Assembly (NCBI RefSeq): GCF_044647545.1
Contig: NZ_CP172818.1
Direction: 5' to 3' (one strand)
From: Escherichia coli
GTDB taxonomy: Bacteria > Pseudomonadota > Gammaproteobacteria > Enterobacterales > Enterobacteriaceae
DNA: 64,000 nt
The notes under the pieces: model-generated
What the model saw: only the letters and a program-made list of their open reading frames with translations
Told to the model about the DNA's origin: nothing
The model's database searches: none
Program-made: the position numbers and the translations under genes
Shown: positions 4,271 through 23,894 of the stretch, in pieces
Position numbering within the stretch: the stretch's first letter is position 1
Layout: each line of letters opens with the position of its first letter

Positions 4271-5035
<765 letters not shown>

Positions 5036-5089
5036 ACCTGATTTCAGTATCATGCCCAGTCATTTCTTCACCTGTGGAGCTTTTTAAGT

Positions 5090-5365: not shown

Positions 5366-5383
5366 TCACAAAGCGGGTCGCCC

Positions 5384-7492
5384 TTGTATCTGTTTGAAAG
5401 CCTGAATCAGCTGATTCAAAACTACCTGCCGGAAGACCAAATCAAGCGTCTGCGGCAGGCGTATCTCGTTGCACGTGATGCTCACGAGGGGCAAACACGT
5501 TCAAGCGGTGAACCCTATATCACGCACCCGGTGGCGGTTGCCTGCATTCTGGCCGAGATGAAACTCGACTATGAAACGCTGATGGCGGCGCTGCTGCATG
5601 ATGTGATTGAAGATACACCCGCCACCTACCAGGACATGGAACAGCTTTTTGGTAAAAGCGTCGCCGAGCTGGTAGAGGGGGTGTCGAAACTTGATAAGCT
5701 CAAGTTCCGCGATAAGAAAGAGGCGCAGGCCGAAAACTTTCGCAAGATGATTATGGCGATGGTGCAGGATATCCGCGTCATTCTCATCAAACTTGCCGAC
5801 CGTACCCACAACATGCGCACGCTGGGCTCACTTCGCCCGGACAAACGTCGCCGCATCGCCCGTGAAACCCTCGAAATTTACAGCCCGCTGGCACACCGTT
5901 TAGGTATCCACCACATTAAAACCGAACTCGAAGAGCTGGGTTTTGAGGCGCTGTATCCCAACCGTTATCGCGTAATCAAAGAAGTGGTGAAAGCCGCGCG
6001 CGGCAACCGTAAAGAGATGATCCAGAAGATTCTTTCTGAAATCGAAGGGCGTTTGCAGGAAGCGGGAATACCGTGCCGCGTCAGTGGTCGCGAGAAGCAT
6101 CTTTATTCGATTTACTGCAAAATGGTGCTCAAAGAGCAGCGTTTTCACTCAATCATGGACATCTACGCCTTCCGCGTGATCGTCAATGATTCCGACACCT
6201 GTTATCGCGTGCTCGGGCAAATGCATAGCCTGTACAAGCCGCGTCCGGGTCGCGTAAAAGATTACATCGCCATTCCAAAAGCGAACGGCTATCAGTCTTT
6301 GCACACCTCGATGATTGGCCCGCACGGCGTGCCGGTTGAGGTCCAGATCCGTACCGAAGATATGGATCAGATGGCAGAGATGGGTGTTGCCGCGCACTGG
6401 GCTTATAAAGAGCACGGCGAAACCAGTACTACCGCACAAATCCGCGCCCAGCGCTGGATGCAAAGCCTGCTGGAGCTGCAACAGAGCGCCGGTAGTTCGT
6501 TTGAATTTATCGAGAGCGTTAAATCCGATCTCTTCCCCGATGAGATTTACGTTTTCACACCGGAAGGGCGCATTGTAGAGCTGCCTGCCGGTGCAACGCC
6601 CGTCGACTTCGCTTATGCGGTGCATACCGATATCGGCCATGCCTGCGTGGGCGCGCGTGTCGACCGTCAGCCTTACCCGCTGTCGCAGCCGCTGACCAGC
6701 GGTCAAACCGTTGAAATCATTACCGCACCGGGCGCTCGCCCGAATGCCGCGTGGCTGAACTTTGTCGTCAGCTCGAAAGCGCGCGCCAAAATTCGTCAGT
6801 TGCTGAAAAACCTCAAGCGTGATGATTCTGTTAGTCTGGGCCGTCGTCTGCTCAACCATGCGTTGGGTGGCAGCCGCAAGCTCAATGAAATCCCGCAGGA
6901 AAATATTCAGCGCGAGCTGGACCGCATGAAGCTGGCAACGCTTGACGATCTGCTGGCTGAAATCGGCCTTGGTAACGCTATGAGCGTGGTGGTCGCGAAA
7001 AATCTGCAACATGGGGACGCCTCCATTCCACCGGCAACCCAAAGTCACGGACATCTGCCCATTAAAGGTGCCGATGGCGTGCTGATCACCTTTGCGAAAT
7101 GCTGCCGCCCTATTCCTGGCGACCCGATTATCGCCCACGTCAGCCCCGGTAAAGGTCTGGTGATCCACCATGAATCCTGCCGTAACATCCGTGGCTACCA
7201 GAAAGAGCCAGAGAAGTTTATGGCTGTGGAATGGGATAAAGAGACGGCGCAGGAGTTCATCACCGAAATCAAGGTGGAGATGTTCAATCATCAGGGCGCG
7301 CTGGCAAACCTGACAGCGGCAATTAACACCACCACCTCGAATATTCAAAGTTTGAATACGGAAGAGAAAGATGGTCGCGTCTACAGCGCCTTTATTCGTC
7401 TGACCGCCCGTGACCGTGTGCATCTGGCGAATATCATGCGCAAAATCCGCGTGATGCCAGACGTGATTAAAGTCACCCGAAACCGAAATTAA
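5384..7492 (+). CDS. spoT: Bifunctional (p)ppGpp synthetase / hydrolase SpoT
   Basis: 702-codon frame with HD, synthetase, TGS and ACT regions; first codon is TTG (non-ATG start). Confidence 0.95.
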   Translation: MYLFESLNQLIQNYLPEDQIKRLRQAYLVARDAHEGQTRSSGEPYITHPVAVACILAEMKLDYETLMAALLHDVIEDTPATYQDMEQLFGKSVAELVEGVSKLDKLKFRDKKEAQAENFRKMIMAMVQDIRVILIKLADRTHNMRTLGSLRPDKRRRIARETLEIYSPLAHRLGIHHIKTELEELGFEALYPNRYRVIKEVVKAARGNRKEMIQKILSEIEGRLQEAGIPCRVSGREKHLYSIYCKMVLKEQRFHSIMDIYAFRVIVNDSDTCYRVLGQMHSLYKPRPGRVKDYIAIPKANGYQSLHTSMIGPHGVPVEVQIRTEDMDQMAEMGVAAHWAYKEHGETSTTAQIRAQRWMQSLLELQQSAGSSFEFIESVKSDLFPDEIYVFTPEGRIVELPAGATPVDFAYAVHTDIGHACVGARVDRQPYPLSQPLTSGQTVEIITAPGARPNAAWLNFVVSSKARAKIRQLLKNLKRDDSVSLGRRLLNHALGGSRKLNEIPQENIQRELDRMKLATLDDLLAEIGLGNAMSVVVAKNLQHGDASIPPATQSHGHLPIKGADGVLITFAKCCRPIPGDPIIAHVSPGKGLVIHHESCRNIRGYQKEPEKFMAVEWDKETAQEFITEIKVEMFNHQGALANLTAAINTTTSNIQSLNTEEKDGRVYSAFIRLTARDRVHLANIMRKIRVMPDVIKVTRNRN

Positions 7493-7498
7493 TGTTTT

Positions 7499-8188
7499 AT
7501 GAACCCAACACGTTATGCACGTATCTGCGAAATGCTCGCCAGGCGGCAGCCTGATCTGACCGTCTGCATGGAGCAGGTCCACAAACCTCATAACGTTTCT
7601 GCGATTATTCGTACCGCAGATGCCGTTGGTGTACATGAAGTTCATGCTGTCTGGCCTGGCAGTCGGATGCGCACCATGGCTTCGGCAGCTGCGGGTAGTA
7701 ACAGCTGGGTACAGGTGAAAACGCACCGCACCATTGGCGATGCCGTCGCTCATCTGAAAGGCCAGGGCATGCAGATTCTGGCAACCCATCTTTCTGATAA
7801 CGCTGTCGATTTCCGCGAAATTGATTACACTCGCCCGACCTGTATTTTGATGGGACAGGAGAAAACAGGCATCACGCAGGAAGCGTTGGCCCTGGCGGAT
7901 CGGGACATCATCATTCCGATGATTGGCATGGTGCAATCGCTGAATGTTTCCGTTGCCTCAGCCCTCATTCTTTACGAAGCCCAGCGCCAGCGGCAAAATG
8001 CGGGCATGTACCTGCGTGAAAACAGCATGTTGCCGGAAGCAGAGCAACAACGCCTGTTGTTTGAAGGCGGCTATCCGGTGCTGGCGAAAGTCGCAAAACG
8101 CAAAGGCCTGCCTTACCCCCACGTCAATCAGCAGGGCGAAATTGAAGCTGATGCCGACTGGTGGGCTACCATGCAGGCTGCAGGATAA
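7499..8188 (+). CDS. trmH: tRNA (Gm18) 2'-O-methyltransferase
   Basis: 229-codon SpoU-family methyltransferase 6 bp downstream of spoT. Confidence 0.9.
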   Translation: MNPTRYARICEMLARRQPDLTVCMEQVHKPHNVSAIIRTADAVGVHEVHAVWPGSRMRTMASAAAGSNSWVQVKTHRTIGDAVAHLKGQGMQILATHLSDNAVDFREIDYTRPTCILMGQEKTGITQEALALADRDIIIPMIGMVQSLNVSVASALILYEAQRQRQNAGMYLRENSMLPEAEQQRLLFEGGYPVLAKVAKRKGLPYPHVNQQGEIEADADWWATMQAAG

Positions 8189-8193
8189 GTGCC

Positions 8194-10275
8194 ATGAAAG
8201 GTCGCCTGTTAGATGCTGTCCCGCTCAGTTCCCTAACGGGCGTTGGCGCAGCGCTTAGTAACAAGCTGGCGAAAATCAACCTGCATACCGTGCAGGATCT
8301 ACTCTTACACCTTCCCCTGCGCTACGAAGATCGCACCCATCTCTACCCCATCGGAGAACTACTACCGGGCGTTTATGCCACGGTGGAAGGCGAAGTGCTG
8401 AACTGCAATATCTCCTTCGGCGGTCGGCGGATGATGACCTGCCAGATCAGCGACGGTTCCGGCATTCTCACCATGCGCTTTTTCAACTTCAACGCGGCAA
8501 TGAAAAATAGCCTGGCGACGGGCCGCCGCGTGCTGGCCTATGGAGAAGCAAAGCGCGGTAAATATGGCGCGGAGATGATCCACCCGGAATACCGCGTGCA
8601 GGGCGATCTCAGTACGCCAGAGTTGCAGGAAACGCTTACGCCGGTTTATCCAACAACCGAAGGCGTAAAGCAGGCCACGCTGCGTAAATTAACCGACCAG
8701 GCGCTTGATCTGCTCGACACCTGCGCCATTGAAGAACTCCTGCCGCCGGAACTGTCACAAGGAATGATGACGCTACCGGAAGCGTTGCGCACTTTGCACC
8801 GCCCGCCGCCGACGCTACAGCTTAGCGATCTGGACACCGGCCAGCATCCGGCACAACGCCGTCTGATTCTGGAAGAACTGCTGGCGCACAACCTCAGCAT
8901 GTTAGCCTTACGTGCCGGAGCACAGCGTTTTCATGCCCAGCCACTGAGCGCCAATGACGCGCTGAAAAATAAACTCCTCGCCGCCTTACCGTTCAAGCCA
9001 ACGGGCGCACAGGCACGCGTAGCGGCGGAGATCGAGCGCGATATGGCGCTGGATGTGCCGATGATGCGCCTGGTACAGGGCGATGTAGGTTCCGGTAAAA
9101 CGCTGGTCGCCGCCCTCGCCGCGCTGCGTGCGATTGCCCACGGCAAACAGGTGGCATTGATGGCACCAACCGAATTACTCGCCGAACAGCACGCCAATAA
9201 CTTCCGTAACTGGTTTGCACCGCTCGGTATCGAAGTGGGCTGGCTCGCCGGTAGGCAGAAAGGTAAAGCGCGGCTGGCACAGCAGGAAGCCATCGCCAGC
9301 GGTCAGGTGCAGATGATTGTCGGAACACACGCCATCTTCCAGGAACAGGTGCAGTTTAACGGTCTGGCGCTGGTGATTATCGACGAACAGCATCGTTTTG
9401 GCGTGCATCAGCGTCTGGCGTTATGGGAGAAAGGCCAGCAGCAGGGCTTCCATCCGCATCAGTTGATCATGACCGCCACGCCCATCCCCCGCACGCTGGC
9501 GATGACTGCGTATGCTGATCTCGATACCTCGGTGATAGATGAGCTGCCGCCAGGCCGCACGCCAGTGACTACGGTCGCTATTCCTGATACCCGCCGTACC
9601 GACATTATTGACCGCGTGCGCCACGCCTGCATAACTGAAGGTCGTCAGGCATACTGGGTTTGTACGTTGATTGAAGAGTCGGAATTGCTGGAAGCGCAGG
9701 CGGCGGAAGCAACCTGGGAAGAGTTGAAACTGGCGTTGCCGGAACTGAACGTCGGCCTGGTACACGGGCGGATGAAACCTGCCGATAAACAGGCGGTGAT
9801 GGCGTCGTTTAAACAAGGTGAACTACACCTGCTGGTTGCCACTACCGTTATTGAAGTCGGTGTTGATGTGCCTAACGCCAGTCTGATGATTATCGAAAAC
9901 CCTGAGCGTCTGGGTCTGGCGCAGTTACACCAGCTTCGCGGGCGTGTAGGTCGTGGTGCGGTGGCTTCTCACTGCGTGCTGCTCTACAAAACGCCGCTCT
10001 CCAAAACCGCGCAAATTCGGCTGCAAGTGCTGCGCGACAGCAACGACGGTTTTGTGATTGCACAGAAAGACTTAGAGATTCGCGGCCCTGGCGAATTGTT
10101 AGGTACGCGTCAGACGGGTAATGCTGAATTTAAAGTGGCGGATTTACTGCGCGATCAGGCGATGATCCCGGAAGTTCAGCGCCTGGCGCGACATATTCAC
10201 GAACGTTACCCACAACAGGCAAAAGCCCTGATAGAACGCTGGATGCCGGAGACGGAACGTTACTCGAATGCGTAA
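8194..10275 (+). CDS. recG: ATP-dependent DNA helicase RecG
   Basis: 693 codons from ATG 8194 (MKGRLLDAVPL); Walker A GDVGSGKT, DEQH box and helicase C-terminal motifs. Confidence 0.95.
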   Translation: MKGRLLDAVPLSSLTGVGAALSNKLAKINLHTVQDLLLHLPLRYEDRTHLYPIGELLPGVYATVEGEVLNCNISFGGRRMMTCQISDGSGILTMRFFNFNAAMKNSLATGRRVLAYGEAKRGKYGAEMIHPEYRVQGDLSTPELQETLTPVYPTTEGVKQATLRKLTDQALDLLDTCAIEELLPPELSQGMMTLPEALRTLHRPPPTLQLSDLDTGQHPAQRRLILEELLAHNLSMLALRAGAQRFHAQPLSANDALKNKLLAALPFKPTGAQARVAAEIERDMALDVPMMRLVQGDVGSGKTLVAALAALRAIAHGKQVALMAPTELLAEQHANNFRNWFAPLGIEVGWLAGRQKGKARLAQQEAIASGQVQMIVGTHAIFQEQVQFNGLALVIIDEQHRFGVHQRLALWEKGQQQGFHPHQLIMTATPIPRTLAMTAYADLDTSVIDELPPGRTPVTTVAIPDTRRTDIIDRVRHACITEGRQAYWVCTLIEESELLEAQAAEATWEELKLALPELNVGLVHGRMKPADKQAVMASFKQGELHLLVATTVIEVGVDVPNASLMIIENPERLGLAQLHQLRGRVGRGAVASHCVLLYKTPLSKTAQIRLQVLRDSNDGFVIAQKDLEIRGPGELLGTRQTGNAEFKVADLLRDQAMIPEVQRLARHIHERYPQQAKALIERWMPETERYSNA

Positions 10276-10277
10276 AA

Positions 10278-10300
10278 GGCGGCGGTGAGAAGACCGCCGC
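10278..10300. terminator. Hairpin between convergent recG and gltS, probable bidirectional terminator
   Basis: GGCGGCGGT-loop-ACCGCCGC inverted repeat in the 33-bp gap between the two stop codons. Confidence 0.5.
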
Positions 10301-10308
10301 TTCATCGG

Positions 10309-11514
10309 TTAACCGGCAAAAATCGGCAACATCAAATACAGCTTAATCACCAGCGCATTGACGATATCGATAAAGAACGCACCGACCATCGGCACGACCA
10401 GGAACGCCATGTGCGACGGGCCAAAGCGTTCAGTGATCGCCTGCATGTTAGCGATTGCCGTTGGTGTCGCGCCAAGGCCAAAGCCACAGTGACCCGCAGC
10501 CAGCACTGCCGCATCGTAGTTTTTGCCCATCATGCGCCAGGTAACGAAGATGGCATACAACGCCATGAAGATGGTCTGTACCACCAGAATCGCCAGCATC
10601 GGCAGCGCCAGCGAAGCCAGCTCCCACAGTTTCAGCCCCATCAGCGCCATCGCCAGGAACAACGACAGGCTTACGTTACCCAGCACGGATACCGCTCGCT
10701 CAAAGACGCGGTAAAAGCCCATCATTGACAGACCGTTGCTCAGAATCACGCCAACAAATAGTACACAGACGAAGGTCGGTAGTTCAAAAGCAGTACCAGC
10801 CAAAAGTTGCGCAACAATTTTCCCCACCGTCAGGCAGATAGCAATCAGCGCGATAGTTTCAATCAGCACCAGCGAGGTGATCATGCGGCCCACATCCGGC
10901 TTTTCGAACGCAGTCGGAACTTCCTGGTCATCCGGAATACCGTTCGGTGTGGTGGAGTGTTTCACCAGATAGCGCGCCACCGGACCGCCAATCAAGCCGC
11001 CCAGCACCAAACCGAACGTTGCACAGGCCATCGCCACTTCTGTCGCATTGGTGAAGCCATAACGTTCAATGAACAATTTACTCCATGCAGCTCCCGTACC
11101 GTGACCGCCGGAAAGCGTAATAGAACCGGCCAACAGCCCCATCAGCGGATCAAGCCCTAACAGGCTAGCCATACCAATGCCAATGGCATTTTGCATCACC
11201 AACAGGCCAACAACCACAATCAAGAAGATGCCAACCACACGCCCACCGGCACGCAAACTGGCAATGTTGGCGTTCAGGCCAATGGTGGCGAAGAAAGCCA
11301 GCATCAACGGATCGCGCAGGGACATATCAAAGTTGACTTCCCAGCCCATGCTTTTTTTCAGTATCAGCAGCGCCAGCGCCACTAATAAACCACCCGCAAC
11401 AGGTTCCGGTATGGTGTATTTCTTCAAAAAGGAGACGGAATGGACCAACTTGCGCCCGAGCAGCAACGTCAGCGTTGCGGCAACAAGCGTTGCTAAAGTA
11501 TCGAGATGAAACAT
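10309..11514 (-). CDS. gltS: Sodium/glutamate symporter
   Basis: 401-codon polytopic membrane protein MFHLDTLATLVAATLTLLLG. Confidence 0.95.
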   Translation of the reverse strand: MFHLDTLATLVAATLTLLLGRKLVHSVSFLKKYTIPEPVAGGLLVALALLILKKSMGWEVNFDMSLRDPLMLAFFATIGLNANIASLRAGGRVVGIFLIVVVGLLVMQNAIGIGMASLLGLDPLMGLLAGSITLSGGHGTGAAWSKLFIERYGFTNATEVAMACATFGLVLGGLIGGPVARYLVKHSTTPNGIPDDQEVPTAFEKPDVGRMITSLVLIETIALIAICLTVGKIVAQLLAGTAFELPTFVCVLFVGVILSNGLSMMGFYRVFERAVSVLGNVSLSLFLAMALMGLKLWELASLALPMLAILVVQTIFMALYAIFVTWRMMGKNYDAAVLAAGHCGFGLGATPTAIANMQAITERFGPSHMAFLVVPMVGAFFIDIVNALVIKLYLMLPIFAG

Positions 11515-11793
11515 AGTTACTCCTTTGTGTCCGCATCACTCTTTCATACTCGTCATACTTCATCGCGCATTTGCAGTAAGGCGAAATATGACGAGTATCG
11601 AGTCATGCTTTCCTGGTTCGAATTCTTCGCTGAAAATAGAAAAATGGCATGGATTTTAAGCAGAAAACAACTAAAAGTTATATAAAAAAGTACATTTATC
11701 TCATTTAAATATTTAGATGAGGATGTGGCAAACGTTTGCTTTTCTCTTTCGGTCAGCTAAAATGCCCGCTTTGCTACCACGGGATTGTTTTCG

Positions 11794-13185
11794 ATGTCTG
11801 TTTCCACCCTCGAGTCAGAAAATGCGCAACCGGTTGCGCAGACTCAAAACAGCGAACTGATTTACCGTCTTGAAGATCGTCCGCCGCTTCCTCAAACCCT
11901 GTTTGCCGCCTGTCAGCATTTGCTGGCGATGTTCGTTGCGGTGATCACGCCAGCGCTATTAATCTGCCAGGCGCTGGGTTTACCGGCACAAGACACGCAA
12001 CACATTATTAGTATGTCGCTGTTTGCCTCCGGTGTGGCATCGATTATTCAAATTAAGGCCTGGGGTCCGGTTGGCTCCGGGTTGTTGTCTATTCAGGGCA
12101 CCAGCTTCAACTTTGTTGCTCCGCTGATTATGGGCGGCACAGCGCTGAAGACCGGTGGTGCTGATGTTCCTACCATGATGGCAGCTTTGTTCGGCACGTT
12201 GATGCTGGCAAGTTGTACCGAGATGGTGATCTCCCGCGTTCTGCATCTGGCGCGCCGCATTATTACGCCGCTGGTTTCTGGCGTTGTGGTGATGATTATC
12301 GGCCTGTCGCTAATTCAGGTTGGGCTGACCTCCATTGGCGGCGGTTACGCAGCCATGAGCGATAACACCTTCGGCGCACCGAAAAATCTGCTGCTGGCAG
12401 GCGTGGTCTTAGCCTTAATTATCCTGCTTAACCGTCAACGTAACCCTTACTTACGCGTGGCCTCACTGGTGATTGCGATGGCGGCCGGATATGCGCTGGC
12501 GTGGTTTATGGGCATGTTGCCAGAAAGCAACGAACCGATGACACAAGAACTGATTATGGTGCCAACGCCGCTCTATTACGGTCTTGGCATTGAATGGAGT
12601 CTGCTGCTGCCGCTGATGCTGGTCTTTATGATCACTTCGCTGGAAACCATTGGCGATATCACGGCGACCTCTGACGTTTCCGAACAGCCAGTGTCCGGTC
12701 CGCTGTACATGAAACGCCTGAAAGGCGGCGTACTGGCAAACGGCCTGAACTCGTTTGTCTCGGCGGTATTTAATACCTTCCCGAACTCCTGCTTCGGGCA
12801 GAACAACGGGGTGATCCAGTTAACCGGTGTTGCCAGCCGCTATGTCGGTTTTGTCGTCGCGCTGATGTTGATCGTGCTGGGTCTGTTCCCGGCAGTGAGC
12901 GGTTTTGTACAACACATTCCAGAACCGGTTCTGGGCGGCGCAACGCTTGTAATGTTTGGCACCATCGCCGCCTCCGGTGTGCGTATCGTTTCTCGTGAGC
13001 CGCTGAACCGCCGGGCGATTCTGATTATCGCGCTGTCGCTGGCGGTCGGTCTGGGCGTGTCTCAGCAGCCGCTGATTTTGCAGTTTGCCCCTGAATGGCT
13101 GAAAAACCTACTCTCCTCCGGGATTGCCGCGGGCGGTATTACTGCCATCGTGCTGAATCTGATTTTCCCACCAGAAAAACAGTAA
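11794..13185 (+). CDS. xanP: Xanthine permease (NCS2 family)
   Basis: 463 codons from ATG 11794; nucleobase:cation symporter-2 family membrane protein. Confidence 0.9.
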
Positions 13186-13281
13186 TTCACTGGCGGCGGT
13201 AAGATAATTACCGCCGCAGTCTCACCTCTTTCACCATTCCCGCCTTGAGGATTGCGCGTAAATCGTGCATAACTCCCTTAT

Positions 13282-15006
13282 GTGCATTTCACGGGATGGA
13301 AGACCATGAAATTTATTGGGAAGCTGCTTCTCTACATTTTCATCGCTCTGTTAGTGGTGATCGCTAGCCTCTATTTTCTTCTGCAAACCCGCTGGGGAGC
13401 AGAACATATCAGCGCATGGGTTTCCGAGAATAGCGACTATCATCTGGCCTTCGGTGCGATGGATCACCGTTTTTCCGCGCCATCTCATATCGTGCTGGAG
13501 AACGTCACGTTTGGCCGTGATGGCCAGCCCGCGACCCTGGTAGCAAAAAGTGTCGACATTGCGCTAAGCAGTCGGCAACTGACCGAACCACGCCATGTCG
13601 ATACCATCCTGCTGGAAAACGGGACGCTGAATCTCACCGACCAGACCGCGCCGCTACCGTTCAAAGCCGATCGTCTGCAACTGCGTGATATGGCGTTTAA
13701 TAGCCCGAATAGCGAATGGAAACTGAGCGCGCAGCGGGTAAATGGCGGCGTGGTTCCGTGGTCACCAGAAGCCGGTAAAGTGCTGGGTACGAAGGCGCAG
13801 ATTCAGTTTAGTGCCGGATCGCTTTCGCTCAATGATGTTCCTGCCACCAATGTACTGATTGAAGGCAGTATTGATAACGATCGCGTTACGCTGACTAACC
13901 TGGGTGCCGACATCGCCCGCGGGACATTAACCGGAAACGCGCAGCGTAACGCCGACGGCAGCTGGCAAGTGGAAAATCTGCGGCTGGCGGATATCCGTCT
14001 ACAAAGCGAAAAATCGCTAACCGACTTCTTTGCGCCATTACGCTCTGTCCCGTCGTTGCAGATTGGTCGCCTGGAAGTCATCGACGCTCGTTTGCAAGGT
14101 CCGGACTGGGCGGTGACCGACCTCGATCTCAGCTTGCGCAACATGACCTTCAGTAAAGATGACTGGCAGACACAGGAAGGTAAACTGTCGATGAACGCCA
14201 GCGAGTTTATTTATGGCTCGCTGCATTTATTTGATCCGATTATAAACGCGGAATTTTCCCCGCAGGGCGTAGCACTGCGCCAGTTCACCAGCCGCTGGGA
14301 AGGGGGCATGGTCAGAACGTCAGGGAACTGGTTGCGTGACGGGAAAATGTTGATCCTTGATGATGCGGCAATTGCCGGACTGGAATATACCTTGCCAAAA
14401 AACTGGCAACAGTTGTGGATGGAAACGACACCCGGTTGGTTAAACAACCTGCAACTGAAGAGATTTAGCGCCAGCCGCAATCTGATCATTGATATCGACC
14501 CTGACTTCCCGTGGCAGCTCACCGCGCTCGATGGTTACGGTGCCAACCTGACGCTGGTTACCGATCATAAATGGGGCGTCTGGAGTGGTTCGGCGAATCT
14601 GAATGCCGCCGCCGCAACGTTTAATCGTGTTGATGTCCGTCGTCCGTCGCTGGCGCTGACCGCCAACAGCAGCACGGTGAATATCAGCGAACTGAGTGCA
14701 TTTACTGAAAAAGGCATTCTGGAAGCCACCGCCAGTGTTTCACAAACGCCACAACGTCAGACCCATATCAGCCTGAATGGACGCGGTGTGCCGGTGAATA
14801 TTTTGCAACAGTGGGGATGGCCTGAATTACCGTTGACTGGCGACGGCAATATTCAGCTTACTGCCAGTGGCGATATTCAGGCCAATGTCCCGCTGAAACC
14901 TACGGTTAGCGGGCAATTGCATGCCGTGAACGCCGCAAAGCAGCAAGTGACTCAAACCATGAATGCGGGCGTAGTTTCCAGTGGTGAAGTTACGTCGACG
15001 GAGTAG
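13282..15006 (+). CDS. yicH: AsmA-family protein YicH
   Basis: About 570-codon ORF with an N-terminal signal-anchor; exact start (13282 or 13306) not resolved. Confidence 0.85.
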   Translation: MHFTGWKTMKFIGKLLLYIFIALLVVIASLYFLLQTRWGAEHISAWVSENSDYHLAFGAMDHRFSAPSHIVLENVTFGRDGQPATLVAKSVDIALSSRQLTEPRHVDTILLENGTLNLTDQTAPLPFKADRLQLRDMAFNSPNSEWKLSAQRVNGGVVPWSPEAGKVLGTKAQIQFSAGSLSLNDVPATNVLIEGSIDNDRVTLTNLGADIARGTLTGNAQRNADGSWQVENLRLADIRLQSEKSLTDFFAPLRSVPSLQIGRLEVIDARLQGPDWAVTDLDLSLRNMTFSKDDWQTQEGKLSMNASEFIYGSLHLFDPIINAEFSPQGVALRQFTSRWEGGMVRTSGNWLRDGKMLILDDAAIAGLEYTLPKNWQQLWMETTPGWLNNLQLKRFSASRNLIIDIDPDFPWQLTALDGYGANLTLVTDHKWGVWSGSANLNAAAATFNRVDVRRPSLALTANSSTVNISELSAFTEKGILEATASVSQTPQRQTHISLNGRGVPVNILQQWGWPELPLTGDGNIQLTASGDIQANVPLKPTVSGQLHAVNAAKQQVTQTMNAGVVSSGEVTSTE

Positions 15007-15577
15007 GTGCAGTAAACATCAATCTCTTCACATTCTGCTCCCAGCAAATGATCAAGATGCAGCAAATCAGCAATATTCTCCGCGCTTAACATCACACCCG
15101 CGCCAGCACGCTTCTCAACATTTATTCTCCATTGCCCCAGCCATTGCTCAAGTAAACGTAAATCACGTTGAATGGTTTTTTCCGAAACATTTAAATAGCC
15201 GCAATCGTAACAATAGTCGTATATTCCCTTCGAGGTAAAAGGAATCGTAATAATCTGTTTTGTCGCGAGGTAATCATTTGCATTTTTACCCTTATCACAG
15301 ATTAAGAAGCCCTATGAGGAAGAGCTTCAGTTGCCATCTCTGAGGGTAAATATAAAGCAGAATAATTTCACAACAATACTCAAAATATGTCCGTAACCCG
15401 GACAGTGATAAAACAAAGCAAGGCGGTTAAGGGATATTTTTCAGCACAGATCACATTTTCGTGATGAATAATCGTGATCATGCTCGCAAATACGATGGAA
15501 GAAATATTTATTACCAGATGTGAGATTATTTACCGGACACGACACAAAACCATTCGTATCCGGCATTCTTCAATAGA

Positions 15578-17896
15578 TTACAACGTAATTGTCAGCGCAT
15601 TCCCTTGAGGCGTCACCACCAGCCCCAGCTCACTTTCAGCCTGCGAACCGCCTTGCAGACCATTTACTTTCACAACATTGCGCAAGCACAGCGTCCAGTT
15701 CTTCGCCACGCCCGCACCATTCACAGTAATTGTGTTGCCAGTACGCGCCGCTTTCAGGGTGAAAAGAACGGAACCATCGGCAGCGGGCACTTCACAGATG
15801 GCTTCATGCCCGTCTTGCAGATTAAAGAGCTGGAATGCCGTGCCTTCGTGCCACGCGTAATCGGGACGTTGCTCGTTGTTGCCCAGCGCCAGTAGGGTGT
15901 TATCACGCACATAAACGGGTAGACTCAGGAAGCCGTGCTGCTGTTTATGCCAGCGACTACCATCGAGTTCATCGTTGTGCCACAGGTGTGTCCAGCGACC
16001 TTCCGGCAAGTAGAACTGCACATCGCCCGCTTCAGTGAACACCGGAGCAACCATCACGTTATCGCCTAACATGTATTGACGGTCAAGGTAATCACAAGCC
16101 GGATCGTCCGGGAACTCCATCATCATGGCCCGCATCATCGGCGTACCCCGGGCGTTTGCACGTGCAGCTTCACGATACAGATACGGCATCATGCGGCATT
16201 TCAGTTGCGTGAAGAAGCGCACCACATCACAGGACTCATCATCATAGGCCCACGGCACACGATAAGATTTGCTGCCGTGTAAACGGCTATGGCTGGAGAG
16301 CAAACCAAACGCGCACCAGCGTTTGTAAACGTGCGCCGGAGCGGTATTCTCAAAGCCGCCGATATCGTGGCTCCAGAAGCCAAAACCAGAAAGGCCAATA
16401 GACAAACCACCGCGCAGGCTTTCCGCCATTGATTCGTAGTTAGCGTAACAGTCGCCACCCCAATGTACCGGGAATTTCTGCGCACCGACGGAGGCCGAGC
16501 GGGCAAACAAGACGGCTTCTTCCTCGCCAACGGTTTCCTTGAGCACGTTCCACACCAGTTCGTTGTAGATGTACGCATAATGGTTATGCATTTTCTGCGG
16601 ATCGGAACCATCAAACCATTGAACATCGGTTGGAATACGTTCGCCAAAGTCGGTCTTAAAGCAATCAACGCCCATCGCGACCAGACCTTTCAGTTTGTCG
16701 GCGTACCATTTGCAGGCATCCGGATTGGTAAAGTCATAAATCGCCAGACCTGGCTGCCATTTATCCCACTGCCACAGCGAACCGTCCGGGCGTTTGAGTA
16801 AATAACCTTTCTCTTGTAACTCTTTAAAGACAGGGGATTTTTGCCCGATATAGGGGTTAATCCAGACGCAGATTTTTAGCCCTTTCGCTTTCAGGCGGCG
16901 GATCATCCCTTCCGGGTCCGGGAAAGTCAGCGGGTCCCACTCAAAATCGCACCACTGGAAGGCTTTCATCCAGAAACAGTCAAAGTGGAAAACATGCAGC
17001 GGCAGATTGCGTTCCGCCATACCATCGATAAAGCTGTTTACCGTCGCTTCGTCGTAGTTGGTGGTAAATGAAGTGGTTAGCCACAGGCCGAAGGACCACG
17101 CGGGCGGCAGCGCCGGACGACCAGTAAAACGGGTATAACTATCAAGTACCGCTTTCGGCGTCGGGCCGTCGATAACAAAGTATTCGAGATATTCACTCTC
17201 AACGCTGAACTGCACTTTGGAGACTTTCTCCGATCCCACTTCAAAAGAGACGCATTGAGGATGATTGACCAGTACCCCATAACCACGGTTAGTCATATAG
17301 AACGGAATATTTTTATACGCCTGTTCAGTACTTGTGCCGCCGTCCCGGTTCCAGGTCTCTACCGTCTGGCCATTGCGCACCAGGGCAGTAAAGCGCTCTC
17401 CCAGACCGTAAACTGTTTCGCCAACGCCAAGATCCAGCCGCTCAAACATATAATTTCGTTGATTATTCGTGTCCTGCACGTAGCCATTATTTTTCACCTG
17501 ACTACCGGTAATACGTTCGCCGTTGCGCAGAAAATCCAGTGACCAGAACTCACCTTTGCTGACACGCGCGCTTAAGTTGCCACTTTTAAACTCAGCGTAA
17601 CGTTCTGTGTTTTCGATTGTGACCTTCACGTCCTGCAAAATATTGAGCGGATAATGAGGACCGTTATTCAGCGCCCCCTGAAAATGCTCAATCCGTACAC
17701 CGACAATACCTTCCTGTGGGGAGAAAAAGCGCAGCGTAAATAAAGGCGTATCAAGCTGCCAGGTACGTTCACGCACATCACGAGGGGCAGCATAGACCAC
17801 CATTTCATTACCCTGCTCTTCAACCTCGAACACCTGAAGCGGGTGAATCAAATTGAGGCCAGGTTGAATCAACCAGTTTCCGTCGCTAATTTTCAT
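15578..17896 (-). CDS. yicI: Alpha-xylosidase (glycoside hydrolase family 31)
   Basis: 772-codon ORF with GH31 catalytic region (WIDMNE-like and KTDFGE motifs). Confidence 0.95.
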
Positions 17897-17905
17897 TGCC
17901 GTTCC

Positions 17906-19288
17906 TTAGTTCTGCACTTCTTGAGAGGTGAATTGTTGCTGGCAACGGCGTTTGCCCTGGGCCAGCTGTTCCATAACGGTTTTCAGATTGTGCGTCGTGA
18001 GCGAGTAGTAGCGTTTAGCGATAATCGCGCTCAGCAAGTAACAGATCGCCGGAACAATCGTGAATAGCGCAATAATGATGCTAATCGTGGCGCTGTTCTG
18101 CGCTTTTTCTGCCGCATCATATCCGCCATAAGCCAGCATCCAGCCGATAAGAGCGCCGCCGAAGGCCAACCCCAGTTTGAGCACAAACAGCGTGCCAGCA
18201 AAACTGATCCCGGTCAGGCGTTTACCATTGCACCACTCGCCGTAATCGACGGTATCGGACATCATTACCCACTGGATAGGTGTCACCAGTTGATGCAACA
18301 CACCAATCACGAAGATGAAGACAAACATGGTGATGCTGGCCTGCATAGGAACAAAGAACATCGCGAGGCTAATCACTGCCAGCAGGGCGTTCGTCCACCA
18401 GAAGATAGTGACTTTACATTTCCAGTCGGTCAGCGGTTTCGCCAGTGCGGAACCAATCAGGTTACCCACGCAATAAGTGGTAAGAAAAGCGACAAACACT
18501 TCCGGCGTACCCAAAATCCATGTGACGTAATACATCATCGCCCCGCCGCGTACGCATACCGCCAGAATATTGAAAATGGTTAGTAAACCGACAATACGCC
18601 ACTGGTCGTTTTGCCAGATATCACGTAAATCTTCCCTCATAGACGTCGTTGTAGGTGGTGCTTCAACGCGTTCTTTAGTGGTGAAGAAACAAAATGCCAG
18701 CATCATGAATGCCACCACGGAAAGGACCGCGATACCGCCCTGGAAACCGAGTGGTTTATTATCACCACCAATTAAATTAACCAGCGGCATCATCAGAACA
18801 GTAGAGAGCATGCCTCCCGCGGTCGCCAGCACAAAACGCCAGGATTGCAGCGAGATACGCTGAGTCGGGTCATTGGTGATTACACCACCCAATGCGCAGT
18901 AAGGGATATTGACGATGGTATAAAGTAAGGTAAGTAGGGTGTAAGTAATTGCTGCATAGATCATTTTGCCGTTCATACTGAGATCTGGCGTGCTATAGGC
19001 CAGTACACAGACGATCCCGAATGGCAGTGCGCCAAACAGTACCCACGGACGAAATTTACCCCAGCGAGAGCGCGTTCGATCGGCCAACAACCCCATGCAA
19101 GGATCGGAAATCGCATCCAGTGCACGAGCGACCAAAAACATGGTTCCGACAAATCCGGCAGGAATGCCAAAAATATCGGTATAAAAGAACATCATATATA
19201 ACATTACGTTATCGAAAATAATGTGGCTGGCGGCGTCTCCCATGCCATAACCAATTTTCTCTTTAACGGACAACACTTCACTCTTCAT
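17906..19288 (-). CDS. yicJ: GPH-family sugar:cation symporter
   Basis: 460 codons from the ATG at 19288 (MKSEVLSVKEK) inside track ORF 17906-19345; co-oriented with yicI. Confidence 0.9.
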   Translation of the reverse strand: MKSEVLSVKEKIGYGMGDAASHIIFDNVMLYMMFFYTDIFGIPAGFVGTMFLVARALDAISDPCMGLLADRTRSRWGKFRPWVLFGALPFGIVCVLAYSTPDLSMNGKMIYAAITYTLLTLLYTIVNIPYCALGGVITNDPTQRISLQSWRFVLATAGGMLSTVLMMPLVNLIGGDNKPLGFQGGIAVLSVVAFMMLAFCFFTTKERVEAPPTTTSMREDLRDIWQNDQWRIVGLLTIFNILAVCVRGGAMMYYVTWILGTPEVFVAFLTTYCVGNLIGSALAKPLTDWKCKVTIFWWTNALLAVISLAMFFVPMQASITMFVFIFVIGVLHQLVTPIQWVMMSDTVDYGEWCNGKRLTGISFAGTLFVLKLGLAFGGALIGWMLAYGGYDAAEKAQNSATISIIIALFTIVPAICYLLSAIIAKRYYSLTTHNLKTVMEQLAQGKRRCQQQFTSQEVQN

Positions 19289-19580
19289 CTGCTTTTCCTT
19301 GATGCTATAGGGGTGCTGAGACCGATAACGCATTTTGTAAACCATCCCTGCGAGAGCGAATATTCCGATATCTGGTTATTAATTTATGATTCTTGTTTTA
19401 TGTGATCGTGGTAGCGTAAATTACGCTCATATATCATTGTAAAATATGGGTTTTATATGAATTATAATGCTTTCGTGATAATACGCTGCGTGTATTAGGC
19501 GGAAAAAACTGATCTGGGGGATGTAGAAACTCAAGGAAGTAGCTATAATGCGCCCCGCCTCCATGTAGCAATCGAGGCGC

Positions 19581-19675
19581 GGAAGATCGTCGTCTCCGGT
19601 GAGGCGGCTGGACTTCAAATCCAGTTGGGGCCGCCAGCGGTCCCGGGCAGGTTCGACTCCTGTGATCTTCCGCCA
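19581..19675 (+). tRNA. selC: tRNA-Sec (selenocysteine tRNA)
   Basis: 95-nt sequence GGAAGATCGTCGTCTCCGGTGAGGCGGCTGGACTTCAAATCCAGTTGGGGCCGCCAGCGGTCCCGGGCAGGTTCGACTCCTGTGATCTTCCGCCA with long variable arm and anticodon-loop ACTTCAAAT (UCA anticodon). Confidence 0.97.
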
Positions 19676-20313
19676 ATTTGCCTCTTCTGACGTTCTCCAA
19701 CCCCTTGTAATACTGTCAATCCAGATATTTTCTACTGCTCAATATTCAATCGGCTTCAGGAATACCTGATCAAAAGTTTTGTGATGGACGATGAGCGACT
19801 GAAGAATCCGCCTGTCGGTTCTTCTGTCCTCGAACGCATCCGCGATATTCGCGCCAGCATGCGCCGTGTTTATTTGCAGGTGATTTGCCCCCCTGCTGAC
19901 TCTCAGCCAACTGTATCGCCATTAAGGTGAAGATGTTGTTTTACACGCCCCAGAACACCCTTTTTTTATACGACGATTCTATTCCTTTAACCGCTGGCGA
20001 AAAAAACTGACCTGTAAACTTCACCAATAATCAGACTGCCATCAAGATTAATTTGTTCATTTAATATATCAAATAAATTTGTTTTATTTTTACTATCAAA
20101 AATAGCTCATTGTCTTACTATAATTAATATATAAATTCGGTGATTAACTCTTAACATGCTTTTGCTAATAATCTCAATTGCTGGCCCTATAATATTGCGC
20201 TAGCATTGCTTTCTGGTTGTATCAGCGATACTCAAAAAATCTTAATACAATACTCATTCGACTGGTACTTATTTGTAACTCAGTTATATTTTGTCGCCCG
20301 GTGATTCAGAAGA

Positions 20314-21498
20314 ATGCAAAAAACGGCTACCACTCCATCAAAAATACTTGATCTCACTGCCGCGGCATTTTTACTTGTCGCCTTTCTGACGGGTATTGCG
20401 GGCGCTCTCCAGACTCCCACCCTAAGTATATTCCTCGCAGATGAACTGAAAGCCCGTCCTATAATGGTAGGTTTTTTCTTCACCGGTAGCGCTATTATGG
20501 GAATTCTGGTCAGTCAATTTCTGGCAAGGCACTCCGATAAACAAGGCGACCGTAAATTACTGATCCTGCTATGTTGCTTATTTGGAGTGTTGGCCTGCAC
20601 TCTTTTTGCGTGGAATCGCAACTACTTCATTCTCCTCTCTACGGGCGTACTTCTGAGTAGTTTTGCTTCCACTGCAAACCCGCAAATGTTCGCCCTCGCC
20701 CGTGAACACGCCGACAGAACAGGCCGTGAGACGGTCATGTTCAGTACATTTTTACGTGCTCAGATCTCGCTTGCCTGGGTTATCGGGCCACCGCTCGCTT
20801 ATGAGCTGGCAATGGGATTTAGTTTTAAAGTGATGTATCTCACCGCAGCCATCGCATTTGTTGTTTGCGGGCTGATAGTCTGGTTGTTTTTGCCATCAAT
20901 ACAAAGAAATATTCCTGTCGTTACCCAACCCGTAGAAATTTTACCCTCCATCCATAGAAAGCGGGATACACGGCTACTTTTTGTGGTCTGTTCAATGATG
21001 TGGGCGGCGAATAATCTCTACATGATAAATATGCCGCTATTTATTATTGATGAACTGCATCTAACCGATAAACTGGCTGGAGAAATGATTGGTATTGCTG
21101 CCGGTCTGGAAATTCCGATGATGTTAATCGCAGGCTATTACATGAAACGTATTGGCAAGCGACTATTAATGCTCATTGCTATCGTGAGTGGTATGTGTTT
21201 TTACGCCAGCGTACTCATGGCGACGACTCCGGCAATTGAGCTGGAATTGCAAATTCTAAATGCCATTTTCCTTGGTATTCTCTGTGGTATCGGCATGCTT
21301 TATTTTCAGGATCTGATGCCTGAAAAAATAGGCTCTGCGACAACGTTATATGCAAATACCTCACGCGTCGGCTGGATTATCGCCGGCTCTGTTGACGGAA
21401 TTATGGTTGAAATCTGGAGCTACCACGCGTTGTTCTGGCTGGCGATAGGGATGTTGGGTATTGCGATGATTTGCCTGCTGTTTATTAAAGATATTTAG
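20314..21498 (+). CDS. setC: MFS sugar efflux transporter
   Basis: 394-codon 12-TM MFS protein directly downstream of selC, as in K-12. Confidence 0.9.
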   Translation: MQKTATTPSKILDLTAAAFLLVAFLTGIAGALQTPTLSIFLADELKARPIMVGFFFTGSAIMGILVSQFLARHSDKQGDRKLLILLCCLFGVLACTLFAWNRNYFILLSTGVLLSSFASTANPQMFALAREHADRTGRETVMFSTFLRAQISLAWVIGPPLAYELAMGFSFKVMYLTAAIAFVVCGLIVWLFLPSIQRNIPVVTQPVEILPSIHRKRDTRLLFVVCSMMWAANNLYMINMPLFIIDELHLTDKLAGEMIGIAAGLEIPMMLIAGYYMKRIGKRLLMLIAIVSGMCFYASVLMATTPAIELELQILNAIFLGILCGIGMLYFQDLMPEKIGSATTLYANTSRVGWIIAGSVDGIMVEIWSYHALFWLAIGMLGIAMICLLFIKDI

Positions 21499-21608
21499 CT
21501 CACCAGTCTGGGCTAAGAAAAATCGGCGTGGCGCAAACAGAGCCATCCTCGCCATTTTTGCTATCATGCCTGCATACATAAACGACAAAACAGTATGCAG
21601 AGGGAAAA

Positions 21609-22532
21609 ATGGGTTCCACCAGAAAGGGGATGCTGAACGTTCTGATTGCCGCCGTGTTGTGGGGAAGTTCAGGGGTCTGCGCGCAATACATCATGGAGCA
21701 AAGCCAGATGTCGTCGCAGTTTTTGACTATGACGCGTTTGATATTCGCCGGTTTGATTCTGCTGACGCTGTCATTTGTTCATGGCGATAAAATCTTTTCT
21801 ATTATTAACAATCACAAAGATGCCATTAGTCTGCTGATTTTTTCCGTGGTTGGCGCGCTAACCGTACAGCTCACTTTTTTGCTAACCATCGAAAAATCGA
21901 ACGCAGCCACGGCAACGGTGCTGCAATTCCTCTCACCGACGATTATCGTCGCCTGGTTCTCACTGGTGCGTAAATCCCGCCCGGGCATTCTGGTTTTTTG
22001 CGCTATTTTGACATCGCTGGTCGGGACTTTTTTATTGGTGACACACGGTAATCCGACGTCATTATCGATCTCTCCTGCCGCGTTATTCTGGGGAATTGCC
22101 TCGGCATTTGCTGCGGCATTCTATACCACCTATCCCTCAACGCTGATTGCCCGCTATGGCACGTTACCGGTCGTCGGCTGGAGTATGCTCATTGGTGGTC
22201 TGATCCTGCTGCCATTTTATGCCAGACAAGGGACAAATTTTGTGGTTAATGGCAGTTTGATTCTGGCGTTTTTTTATTTGGTGGTCATTGGTACGTCCCT
22301 GACATTTAGTCTGTACCTGAAAGGAGCACAATTAATTGGCGGTCCAAAAGCCAGCATTTTAAGCTGTGCAGAACCATTAAGTAGCGCGCTGCTCTCTTTG
22401 CTGTTACTGGGGATCACATTCACATTACCGGACTGGCTGGGAACGCTGCTGATTCTGTCATCAGTGATTTTGATTTCAGTGGATTCCCGTCGCCGCGCCA
22501 GAAAAATAAATCGTCCGGCGCGGGATGAGTGA
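21609..22532 (+). CDS. yicL: EamA/DMT-family inner membrane transporter
   Basis: 307-codon membrane protein with duplicated EamA-type halves. Confidence 0.9.
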
Positions 22533-22535
22533 GAA

Positions 22536-23354
22536 TTACCAGCCAGGCACCGCGCCACCGTTAAAGATGGTTTCTGCCGCTTTAGCGACTTCGGATGATT
22601 GATAAGATTGCAGAAATTCCTTCACGTTTTCTGCATTCTTATTATCTTCCCGTGCTACCAGAATGTTCACATACGGCGAATTTTTATCTTCAATAAATAC
22701 GCTGTCGTGCACCGGAGAAAGTCCGGTCTGCTGAATGTAAGTGGTGCTGATAATCGCCACATCAACTTTGGGATCATCCAGTACGCGCGGGAGCTGCGCC
22801 CCCTCGAGTTCCATAATCTGCAAATGACGAGGATTATCGGTTATATCCAGCGCGGTAGGTAATAACCCTTTTCCCTCTTTCAGAATAATTAGCTTCTCTT
22901 TTTGCAACAGTAAAAGCGCGCGACCAAGGTTGGTCGGGTCGTTGGGGATCGCCACTGTCGCGCCTTCTTTTATTTGCGCCACGGTTTTGATTTTTTTGGA
23001 ATAACCCGCCATAGGGAAGACAAACGTATTTCCCACCGCTACCAGTTTATAACCATGCGCCTGATTATCTTGTTCAAGAAAGGGCCGATGCTGGAAGACA
23101 TTCGCATCAAGCTCGCCATGATTTGTCGCATCGTTCGGTAGCAACGAACCGCTAAATCCTACCAGTTCAACATCGAGGCCATATTTCTCTTTTGCCACCT
23201 TTTTAGCGACTTCCGCGACATCTTGTTCTGCGCCATTTATAACGCCAACTTTAATGTGTTTTGCATCGCTGCTACTCTGGTCGCAACCTGCCAGCAGAAT
23301 TCCTGCCAGCAATAATGCGGCCCCCGCCCGTAGATGATGTGTTGTCAGTTTCAT
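22536..23354 (-). CDS. nlpA: Lipoprotein 28 (methionine-binding NlpA/MetQ family)
   Basis: 272-codon ORF with lipobox LLAGC in the signal peptide. Confidence 0.92.
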   Translation of the reverse strand: MKLTTHHLRAGAALLLAGILLAGCDQSSSDAKHIKVGVINGAEQDVAEVAKKVAKEKYGLDVELVGFSGSLLPNDATNHGELDANVFQHRPFLEQDNQAHGYKLVAVGNTFVFPMAGYSKKIKTVAQIKEGATVAIPNDPTNLGRALLLLQKEKLIILKEGKGLLPTALDITDNPRHLQIMELEGAQLPRVLDDPKVDVAIISTTYIQQTGLSPVHDSVFIEDKNSPYVNILVAREDNKNAENVKEFLQSYQSSEVAKAAETIFNGGAVPGW

Positions 23355-23562
23355 TTTTTATCCTTTTTTTAATCATTAACTGACTATAATGGCAAGAACA
23401 CTACGATTTAAAAAACGAAAAGCTATCGAATAGAAGAAAAAGGTATAAAAAACTGGCACTTCTTACTGACCACGCAAACACCTTTCGTACAGCATGATGA
23501 GAGCGGTAAAAGCAAACTACACTTATGCTTCATTCGATGCACATTTGCAGAAGGTTGCCGCT

Positions 23563-23856: not shown

Positions 23857-23894
23857 ACCGCTACAACTACTGACCAACGCTTCTTTACCTGATA

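Follow-up and report, generated by a model that had tools for sequence, protein, structure and literature searches.

We find that the interval between yicH and yicI in the analysed window, a 64,000-nucleotide stretch of an Escherichia coli genome, very probably (about 0.9) holds a non-functional 5' remnant of frzR, with the rest of the frz operon deleted at this site. The first-pass annotation had noticed here a minus-strand frame without a start codon and had taken it for a decayed sugar-operon repressor of the DeoR type, or else a chance match, and not a live gene. A dead remnant of a sugar-operon regulator is indeed what the site contains; the earlier call is corrected in that the gene is the PRD-type regulator FrzR and not a DeoR repressor. 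Homology, synteny, deletion end points, frameshift and domain type of the remnant were each observed directly.

The frzR 5' stump occupies 267 nt of the minus strand (15017..15283; alignment and translation) and comprises codons 1-89 plus 1 nt, minus one base, so that about 17%, the first sixth, of the gene remains. Over the 604 nt from 15017 to 15620, the window shares 99.5% identity with the 5' region of frzR in E. coli FDAARGOS_497, and once the missing base is restored, residues 1-89 match WP_022646284.1, a BglG-family/PRD regulator of 517 aa, at 89/89 positions. The stump lies where frzR does, between yicH and yicI and transcribed in the same direction as yicI. The window has neither a complete 517-codon frzR frame nor, behind it, the PTS and catabolic genes of frz, which marks the copy as a pseudogene remnant. 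The true frzR ATG survives at 15283-15281, with an AAGGG ribosome-binding site upstream. Alignment and comparison with FrzR locate a 1-nt deletion on the minus strand in codon 28 (15200..15201), where GCCGGC has become GCGGC; this frameshift separates the ATG from the helix-turn-helix (HTH) motif, and translation from the true start ends after 30 codons at a TAA (MQMITSRQNRLLRFLLPRREYTTIVTIAAI; 15191..15283, minus strand).

The frame first noticed is thereby accounted for. On the minus strand of window positions 14952-15311 it translates as ...YDYCYDCGYLNVSEKTIQRDLRLLEQWLGQWRINVEKRAGAGVMLSAEN..., exactly as quoted in the first-pass annotation, and runs from a TAG at 15314-15312 to a TGA at 14954-14952. 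That it is open with no start codon upstream of the motif is confirmed by its translation and by the ORF list: the first in-frame ATG, GTG or TTG is a GTG at 15095, past the motif, and the only ORF listed for this frame is one of 47 aa at 14952-15095. The description of the frame as start-less thus stands for the frame itself, which has no start because one base is missing in codon 28, but not for the gene, whose ATG persists in another frame, split off by that base. FrzR residues 29-89 appear verbatim as residues 38-98 of the frame. Its read-through tail (14952..15016, minus strand; VYCTYSVDVTSPLETTPAFMV and then the stop), delimited by translation and comparison with FrzR, overlaps the 3' end of yicH in antisense, past the yicH stop codon at 15004-15006, and is meaningless, being antisense to that end plus a 10-nt spacer.

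The full-length orthologue whose presence at the syntenic position the first-pass annotation had suggested looking for is widespread. With 80% or more of the 7.28-kb islet taken as frz-positive, frz is present between yicH and yicI in about 30% of complete E. coli genomes (1602 of 5426), and the order yicJ-yicI-frzR...cupin-yicH-xanP recurs in Citrobacter spp., Phytobacter, Superficieibacter and Escherichia sp. MOD1-EC7003, a member of a cryptic lineage. FDAARGOS_497 is annotated, in order, with yicH, 7 frz genes, a BglG-family regulator and yicI. The first gene of frz is frzR; the others encode the IIA, IIB and IIC components of a fructose-type PTS, two class II ketose-bisphosphate aldolases, a ROK kinase and a cupin sugar isomerase. 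In strain BEN2908, too, the literature has frz between yicH and yicI, and GR27 (yicH..yicI) is listed as the frz operon (PMC12928451). The operon is a known sugar-uptake operon of E. coli, and the stump is an ordinary dead gene fragment.

Both neighbours of the stump are intact in the window. On the left, yicH (AsmA-family protein; 13306..15006, plus strand, by the ORF list) ends in a TAG stop and is 100% identical to yicH of FDAARGOS_497 (L001 3572-5272, where L001 denotes coordinates in the FDAARGOS_497 reference segment). On the right, yicI (alpha-xylosidase; 15578..17896, minus strand) is placed by the ORF list and the FDAARGOS_497 annotation. The last 10 native nucleotides downstream of yicH, as aligned to FDAARGOS_497, are 15007..15016, and the deletion junction falls between 15016 and 15017: window positions 13000-15016 align to L001 3266-5282 and positions 15017-18000 to L001 12001-14985, leaving 6718 bp (L001 5283-12000) missing relative to FDAARGOS_497. 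The missing DNA encodes the cupin/lyxose isomerase, the ROK kinase, two class II aldolases, PTS IIC/IIB/IIA and frzR codons 90-517. A deletion of 6.7 kb would thus have taken out all DNA between the tenth nucleotide after the yicH stop and frzR codon 90. Positions 1-15016 of the window are 100% identical to FDAARGOS_497; positions 15017-23857 differ from it by 0 substitutions and 3 single-base indels, all within 15200-15381.

Two routes to this structure were considered and set aside. We found no microhomology between the two deletion ends in FDAARGOS_497; a microhomology-mediated deletion in an FDAARGOS_497-like genome was rejected, as the ends share no repeat and the junction 10-mer occurs once in the islet. 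Homologous recombination is unlikely to have brought in a K-12-type allele, for up to the junction the window has the yicH allele of frz-positive genomes (TAG stop, GGAGTAGG), where all 4 of the 4 frz-negative genomes inspected have GGAGCCGG.

That the deletion happened in a living cell is less certain than the frzR homology, which holds whether or not the truncation is an artefact. The truncation and frameshift could have been produced by mis-assembly, by a poor consensus or by synthetic or edited sequence, the real locus being either an intact frz or a K-12-type empty site; we consider this unlikely, though it is the most serious of the competing explanations. The junction of GTAAA with CATCAATCTC is unique to the window among all sequences searched: it occurs in none of the 5426 complete E. 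coli genomes, the junction query GTAAAMATCAATCTCTTCACATTCTG found no match in JGI metagenome contigs, and neither the junction-spanning ORFs (47 aa and 85 aa) nor the 30-aa peptide of the ATG frame is present in a collection of 15 billion proteins. The three nearby 1-nt indels of the window were likewise absent from every other sequence searched. Within the first 24 kb, every difference from FDAARGOS_497 sits in the 561 nt of stump plus upstream region, a clustering with a chance of about 1.3e-5 for 3 random events, and the differences are three indels with no substitutions. The junction 10-mer also follows yicH in frz-negative genomes while occurring once in the islet, as in a false join at a shared 10-mer. 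Elsewhere in the window, other accessory-DNA sites are garbled to homopolymer or poly-A (25500-26000, 35000-36750 and 46783-46802), no complete E. coli genome exceeds 81.5% identity over the interval 25150-26060, which holds the first of these patches, and several aligned blocks begin anew exactly at CDS boundaries. Against an artefact, the composition of the stump is normal, the dgo region is an ordinary recombination tract with 45 SNPs and no indels, as in a real strain, and loss or frameshift of dispensable operons is common in nature.

The K-12-type empty site shares with the window the end of yicH through GTAAA and then CATCAATCTC (or AATCAATCTC), as well as the hairpin adjoining yicI; the hairpin lies just past the yicI stop at 15533..15563 of the window and is homologous to the one that fills the K-12-type yicH-yicI spacer. 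What K-12-type genomes lack is about 505 nt (window 15027-15531) holding the stump and the frz upstream region. Because several enterobacterial genera have frz at this very position, K-12-like E. coli would have lost the operon and not have failed to gain it. It is conceivable, though we regard it as improbable, that the window is a real evolutionary intermediate, with frz ancestral, the K-12-type site formed by two successive deletions and the window having undergone the first only. The 10 nt CATCAATCTC after yicH in some 3400 frz-negative genomes would then be a relic of frzR codons 86-89. If so, most E. coli would have lost an ancestral operon that has passed for an ExPEC-specific islet, and the deletion path would be readable nucleotide by nucleotide.

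The frz upstream region, the 294-nt yicI-frzR intergenic interval with its AAGGG site (15284..15577, minus strand; alignment), is retained in the window with two private 1-nt indels: an A lost from the run at 15284-15287, in the spacer between Shine-Dalgarno (SD) sequence and ATG, and a base gained at 15381. The gained base falls in the tail of a terminator-like hairpin with T-run that a terminator scan places upstream of frzR (15388..15404, minus strand). The frz promoter would be expected here because the region precedes the operon's first gene; a scan of 14850-15700 found no consensus sigma-70 promoter, a result that is uninformative for an activator-dependent promoter. With the ribosome-binding site and upstream region still present, no terminator-like site between the stump and yicH, and the operon gone together with its terminator, one may ask whether the stump keeps a function through the 30-aa peptide, a 47-aa product begun at the GTG (15095-14952) or a transcript that enters the yicH 3' end in antisense. 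We hold this to be very improbable: there is no promoter consensus, the activator is destroyed, the SD-ATG spacer is one base short, the truncated state is conserved in no other genome, and an Rfam search of the gap at E<=1 yielded nothing beyond noise (a 15.6-bit match to a Burkholderia sRNA whose gathering score is 70). On our reading of a non-functional remnant, the loss of 1 nt in codon 28 has shifted what survives of the HTH-coding sequence away from the reading frame of the ATG, and no useful product would be expected, since the ATG frame yields at most a 30-aa peptide without the recognition helix and the other frame has no start. The controlling PRD and EIIB-like domains and the target PTS/catabolic operon are all gone as well.

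The protein family of the remnant is equally well defined. The motif noted in the first pass is the recognition helix of a winged-helix HTH domain (Pfam HTH_11; repaired residues 7-64; 15093..15265, minus strand) that is split by the frameshift. In the raw frame HTH_11 scores 23.4 bits, and HTH_DeoR (PF08220), the profile proposed for checking the DeoR call, falls below its gathering cut-off of 21 bits (14.6 bits, E 0.029). For the repaired stump, Pfam gives HTH_11 (38.7 bits, E 8.9e-10), Mga (23.7), HTH_Mga (23.1) and, just at the cut-off, HTH_DeoR (21.0). Pfam matches of the full-length 517-aa orthologue are HTH_11, Mga, two PRDs (105 bits, two stretches) and PTS_IIB (24.4); among them there is neither the DeoR C-terminal sugar-phosphate sensor domain nor a CAT RNA-binding domain. 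In the PDB, the relatives are the LicT PRD, AtxA and AcpB, the best NCBIfam match is a partial one to the AcpB/EbpR/MafR subfamily, and LicT, GlcT and BglG are matched by the PRD part only. Neither the Pfam scores nor the domains found in the full-length orthologue allow membership in DeoR/GlpR. That the frame is what remains of a sugar-operon repressor of this family is accordingly all but excluded: the weak HTH_DeoR scores, faint NCBIfam matches to SrlR and FucR, and a VSxxTIxRDL motif common to DeoR-type and related winged-helix families speak for it, but HTH_11 and Mga-type models outscore HTH_DeoR on every version of the sequence, and the PRD and PTS_IIB-like domains and the PDB relatives point elsewhere. 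The word repressor also does not fit, as the Mga/AtxA/MtlR-like architecture is that of activators, and FrzR is reportedly an Mga-family PTS transcriptional activator. We give no weight to the idea that frame and motif arose by chance, without gene ancestry, for although the frame has no start codon and overlaps the end of yicH, the match is to an annotated gene at the same position, with 99.5% nucleotide identity over 604 nt and identity at all 89 residues.

The effect of these results is small, an annotation-level correction only. The window is genotypically frz-negative at a locus that serves as a marker of fitness and virulence in ExPEC/APEC, and a cell carrying such a locus would be phenotypically frz-negative. 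The published frz typing primers (PMC6238794) map to L001 11021-11863, in the stretch of frzR that is deleted here, and the window contains none of them, so that this locus would score negative in the published frz PCR. The degenerate patches call for caution over any "private" feature of the window.

Among known systems, the closest is frzR of the ExPEC BEN2908 frz operon (Rouquet et al. 2009, J Bacteriol 191:4427, as cited in PMC12928451), with which the window shares the yicH-yicI site, orientation and upstream region, and the FDAARGOS_497 orthologue is identical to the repaired stump over residues 1-89. The window copy differs from a BEN2908-type frzR in retaining 17% only, in its codon 28 frameshift and in the seven missing downstream operon genes. 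More broadly, the full-length orthologue has the HTH_11/Mga/PRD/EIIB-like set of the PRD DNA-binding regulators (the Mga/AtxA/AcpB 'PCVR' and the MtlR/LicR-type activators) and adjoins a PTS presumably under its control; of this set the stump keeps the first winged-helix domain and has lost the second HTH, the two PRDs and the EIIB-like domain. Regulators of this class would be expected to switch on the neighbouring operon under the control of PTS-dependent phosphorylation of their PRD histidines. PGAP labels the full-length orthologue a 'BglG family transcription antiterminator', a label that is nominal only, since the protein lacks the CAT domain of BglG/SacY-type RNA-binding antiterminators. 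With DeoR/GlpR-family repressors the remnant shares the VSxxTIxRDL motif and a weak HTH_DeoR score; it differs from them in that its best HTH match is HTH_11 and that its full-length counterpart has another architecture, without their C-terminal sensor.

The frame singled out in the first-pass annotation (minus strand, 15311-14952) is open from a TAG (15314-15312) to a TGA (14954-14952) and translates to GFLICDKGKNANDYLATKQIITIPFTSKGIYDYCYDCGYLNVSEKTIQRDLRLLEQWLGQWRINVEKRAGAGVMLSAENIADLLHLDHLLGAECEEIDVYCTYSVDVTSPLETTPAFMV, followed by the stop. The convergent neighbours yicH (plus strand, end at 15006) and yicI (minus strand, end at 15578) leave a gap in which the frame lies; it overlaps the final yicH codons in antisense. 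Translation and the ORF list confirm the description of a frame that runs into the yicH 3' end and has no start codon before its helix-turn-helix (HTH) motif; the earliest is a GTG at 15095, past the motif. The missing start is real for this frame itself but is secondary and explained by a frameshift: an ATG survives at 15283-15281 in the neighbouring frame, with AAGGG upstream, and is cut off from the motif. The ATG frame encodes MQMITSRQNRLLRFLLPRREYTTIVTIAAI and a stop, a peptide resembling the opening helix of a winged-helix regulator, and it ends exactly where the other frame turns meaningful (...GYLNVSEKTIQRDL...). One domain is thus split in halves over two frames, which points to a frameshift.

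We compared window 14900-15620 with 5426 complete E. coli genomes by megablast and find two yicH/yicI locus types. About 1600 genomes match 15017-15620 beside yicI, inside a gene annotated "BglG family transcription antiterminator", and most others match the yicH and yicI ends only. The top match, E. coli FDAARGOS_497 (NZ_CP033850.1), has eight genes in the yicH-yicI gap, all on the yicI strand: a 517-aa regulator (frzR), fructose-type PTS IIA, IIB and IIC, two class II ketose/fructose-bisphosphate aldolases, a ROK-family protein and a D-lyxose/D-mannose-type (cupin) isomerase. This cluster is the frz operon, a carbohydrate operon tied to fitness and virulence in ExPEC/APEC (PMC8777976; PMC3325963; PMC6238794), which in BEN2908 lies in the 7227-bp genomic region "GR27 yicH..yicI" (PMC12928451, citing Rouquet et al. 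2009). With one base restored at codon 28, the first 89 residues are 89/89 identical to FrzR and are followed by an antisense-yicH tail. Because of this match, the open frame can be divided into three parts: residues 1-37 are out-of-frame 5' sequence plus codons 1-28, the next 61 are genuine FrzR 29-89, and the final 21 are read-through nonsense from antisense yicH. The frame is therefore a piece of a gene already known, in an operon already known and at its established position, which makes it an ordinary finding, and the suggestion of a chance match falls away.

The stump of frzR (15017-15283, minus strand) borders a large deletion. Window 1-15016 is 100.000% identical to FDAARGOS_497 and resumes after 15016 at position 12001 of the FDAARGOS_497 locus (L001), so a clean 6718-bp block (L001 5283-12000) is missing, from 10 nt past the yicH stop to just beyond frzR codon 89. 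The two deletion ends have no repeat in common in FDAARGOS_497. Over 15017-23857 the differences come down to three single-base indels, with no substitution, and all three lie within 15200-15381: a G is lost from GCCGGC at frzR codon 28, one A is lost from the run that separates the ribosome-binding site from the ATG, and one base is gained in a terminator-like hairpin's tail, 98 nt ahead of the ATG. Three random differences would all land in the 561 nt of stump and upstream region with a chance of about 1e-5, so the indels are either tied to the deletion event or made by the same process as the degenerate patches described below.

Given that the ATG frame stops after 30 codons, ahead of the recognition helix, that the helix-bearing frame has no start codon, and that the window lacks the second HTH, both PRDs, the EIIB-like domain and the operon that would be regulated, we infer that the frzR fragment is dead. 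The first-pass interpretation is partly right: what survives is a dead piece of a regulator gene from a sugar operon, as the FrzR identity at yicH/yicI, the deletion and the frameshift indicate. The published frz typing primers (PMC6238794) map to L001 11021-11863, a part of frzR lost in the deletion, and do not occur in the window; a strain of this kind would therefore be typed as frz-negative. Rfam returned no RNA family at the locus and a consensus scan no sigma-70 promoter; a residual antisense transcript into yicH is possible but unsupported.

A rival explanation, which we regard as possible but less likely, is that the truncation and the three indels are an artefact and not a cellular event. 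The junction, the indels and the junction-spanning ORFs are private to the window, with no second occurrence among the 5426 genomes, JGI metagenome contigs or a 15-billion-protein collection. In addition, all other inspected accessory-DNA sites where FDAARGOS_497 differs from K-12-like genomes are abnormal, which lowers confidence in the truncation and indels. Between yicS and nepI (23858-23900) the window lacks the 18-kb ETT2-remnant/eilA/iatC island of FDAARGOS_497, and the aligned blocks on either side stop at the CDS ends of yicS and nepI. The spacer in its place, 43 nt long, is private to the window and resembles that of island-less genomes without an exact match (at best 97.8% across a 601-nt query); the hairpin of the best-matching of these, AHM8C212RI, is broken in the spacer. 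Between nepI and yicN (25273-25985), homopolymer-rich sequence (runs of A, C and G) with no intact ORF stands in place of a RelE/ParE toxin-HTH antitoxin module; a 25150-26060 query reaches at most 81.5% identity to any of the 5426 genomes, while both flanks equal FDAARGOS_497. At window 34923-36737, the 3.4-kb uhpA-ilvN accessory stretch begins as a copy of the FDAARGOS_497 region with G and T bases dropped and passes into about 1.5 kb of poly-A-rich, low-complexity sequence (up to 78% A, 53% of bases in runs of at least 6); perfect identity returns precisely at the boundary of the ilvN CDS. Such DNA does not look natural for E. coli. Lastly, a 506-bp segment of the 6-phospho-alpha-glucosidase gene of FDAARGOS_497 is absent at 46780-46802, as in K-12-like genomes, and the gap is bridged by a private poly-A filler of 23-24 nt, CCCACAAAAAACAAAAAAAAAAAG. 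These degenerate patches may reflect a poor assembly, or sequence that was edited or made synthetically. Against an artefact, the dgo operon (dgoT/D/A/K/R, 56010-60828) looks normal, with 45 substitutions and no indels relative to FDAARGOS_497 in identical surroundings, a pattern that reads as the ordinary signature of import by homologous recombination. Indel clusters relative to FDAARGOS_497 also occur near 42254-42287 (6 gapped positions) and at 62978-62982 (a 9-nt difference).

The junction itself can be read in two ways. In frz-negative genomes yicH runs on as GTAAA[C/A]ATCAATCTC and then directly into the hairpin beside yicI, and 3434 genomes align through these bases. The window reads GTAAA, then CATCAATCTC, then TTCACATTC..., where CATCAATCTC (15017-15026) is the antisense of frzR codons 86-89, present once in the whole islet and exactly at the deletion end. 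Four K-12-type loci (L004-L007) have CATCAATCTC or AATCAATCTC right after yicH, the same 10-mer as at the window junction. This 10-mer of K-12-type genomes may be a frzR relic or a chance match; the chance of its arising anywhere in the islet is about 0.014. One of the two readings is that the junction was made by a jump at a 10-mer which both locus types happen to share. The other, that K-12-type sites derive from a window-like intermediate once a further deletion had removed about 505 nt (window 15027-15531), fits poorly, because the window flanks are identical to a frz-positive strain and the frz-positive yicH allele is retained right up to the junction. yicH here stops at a TAG (15004-15006), three codons sooner than in K-12-type genomes (ending TSTE versus TSTEPVR), and, among the genomes inspected (the window, FDAARGOS_497 and four frz-negative genomes), the short allele accompanies the frz-positive locus type.

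Full-length homologues of frzR do occur at the syntenic position in E. coli and other genera. The 7.28-kb islet is covered to at least 80% in 1602 of the 5426 complete E. coli genomes and matched partially in only about four. When each species was represented by a single genome, full-length orthologues of FrzR at 70-79% identity, with the same operon behind them, turned up in Citrobacter (ten species), Phytobacter, Kosakonia, Superficieibacter and Buttiauxella; the orthologue of Escherichia sp. MOD1-EC7003 reaches 96%. The order yicJ-yicI-frzR...cupin-yicH-xanP is as in E. coli in the Citrobacter, Phytobacter ursingii, Superficieibacter and Escherichia loci. This shared synteny implies that the locus is old at yicH/yicI and that frz-negative E. 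coli represent the derived state. The operon, usually termed an ExPEC-associated islet, sits at yicI/yicH in many Citrobacter species, in Phytobacter, in Superficieibacter and in a cryptic Escherichia lineage (loci L010-L030). Several Citrobacter and Superficieibacter loci gave no match to the ROK kinase in the space from the second aldolase to the cupin gene.

The fragment had been assigned to the DeoR type, and this assignment falls because the Pfam HTH_DeoR match of the raw frame is not significant (14.6 bits, cut-off 21, E 0.029); HTH_11 reaches 23.4 bits (cut-off 25). The repaired stump scores 38.7 bits for HTH_11, 23.7 for Mga, 23.1 for HTH_Mga and 21.0 for HTH_DeoR. In the full-length orthologue, Pfam detects HTH_11 (53 bits), a Mga-type second HTH (50), two PRD stretches (105) and a C-terminal PTS_IIB-like domain (24), with neither a DeoR C-terminal domain nor a CAT RNA-binding domain. 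This architecture places FrzR among the PRD-containing DNA-binding regulators. Such regulators (Mga, AtxA, MtlR, LicR) are activators, controlled through PTS phosphorylation of their PRDs, and the proposed role as a repressor does not hold. FrzR itself is reportedly classed in the abstract of Rouquet 2009 as a Mga-family PTS transcriptional activator. Among solved structures, the relatives of the full-length orthologue are the LicT PRD module, AtxA and AcpB, and its top NCBIfam match, below cut-off, is the AcpB/EbpR/MafR subfamily. The likeness to the DeoR signature is real solely at the winged-helix recognition helix, which both share.
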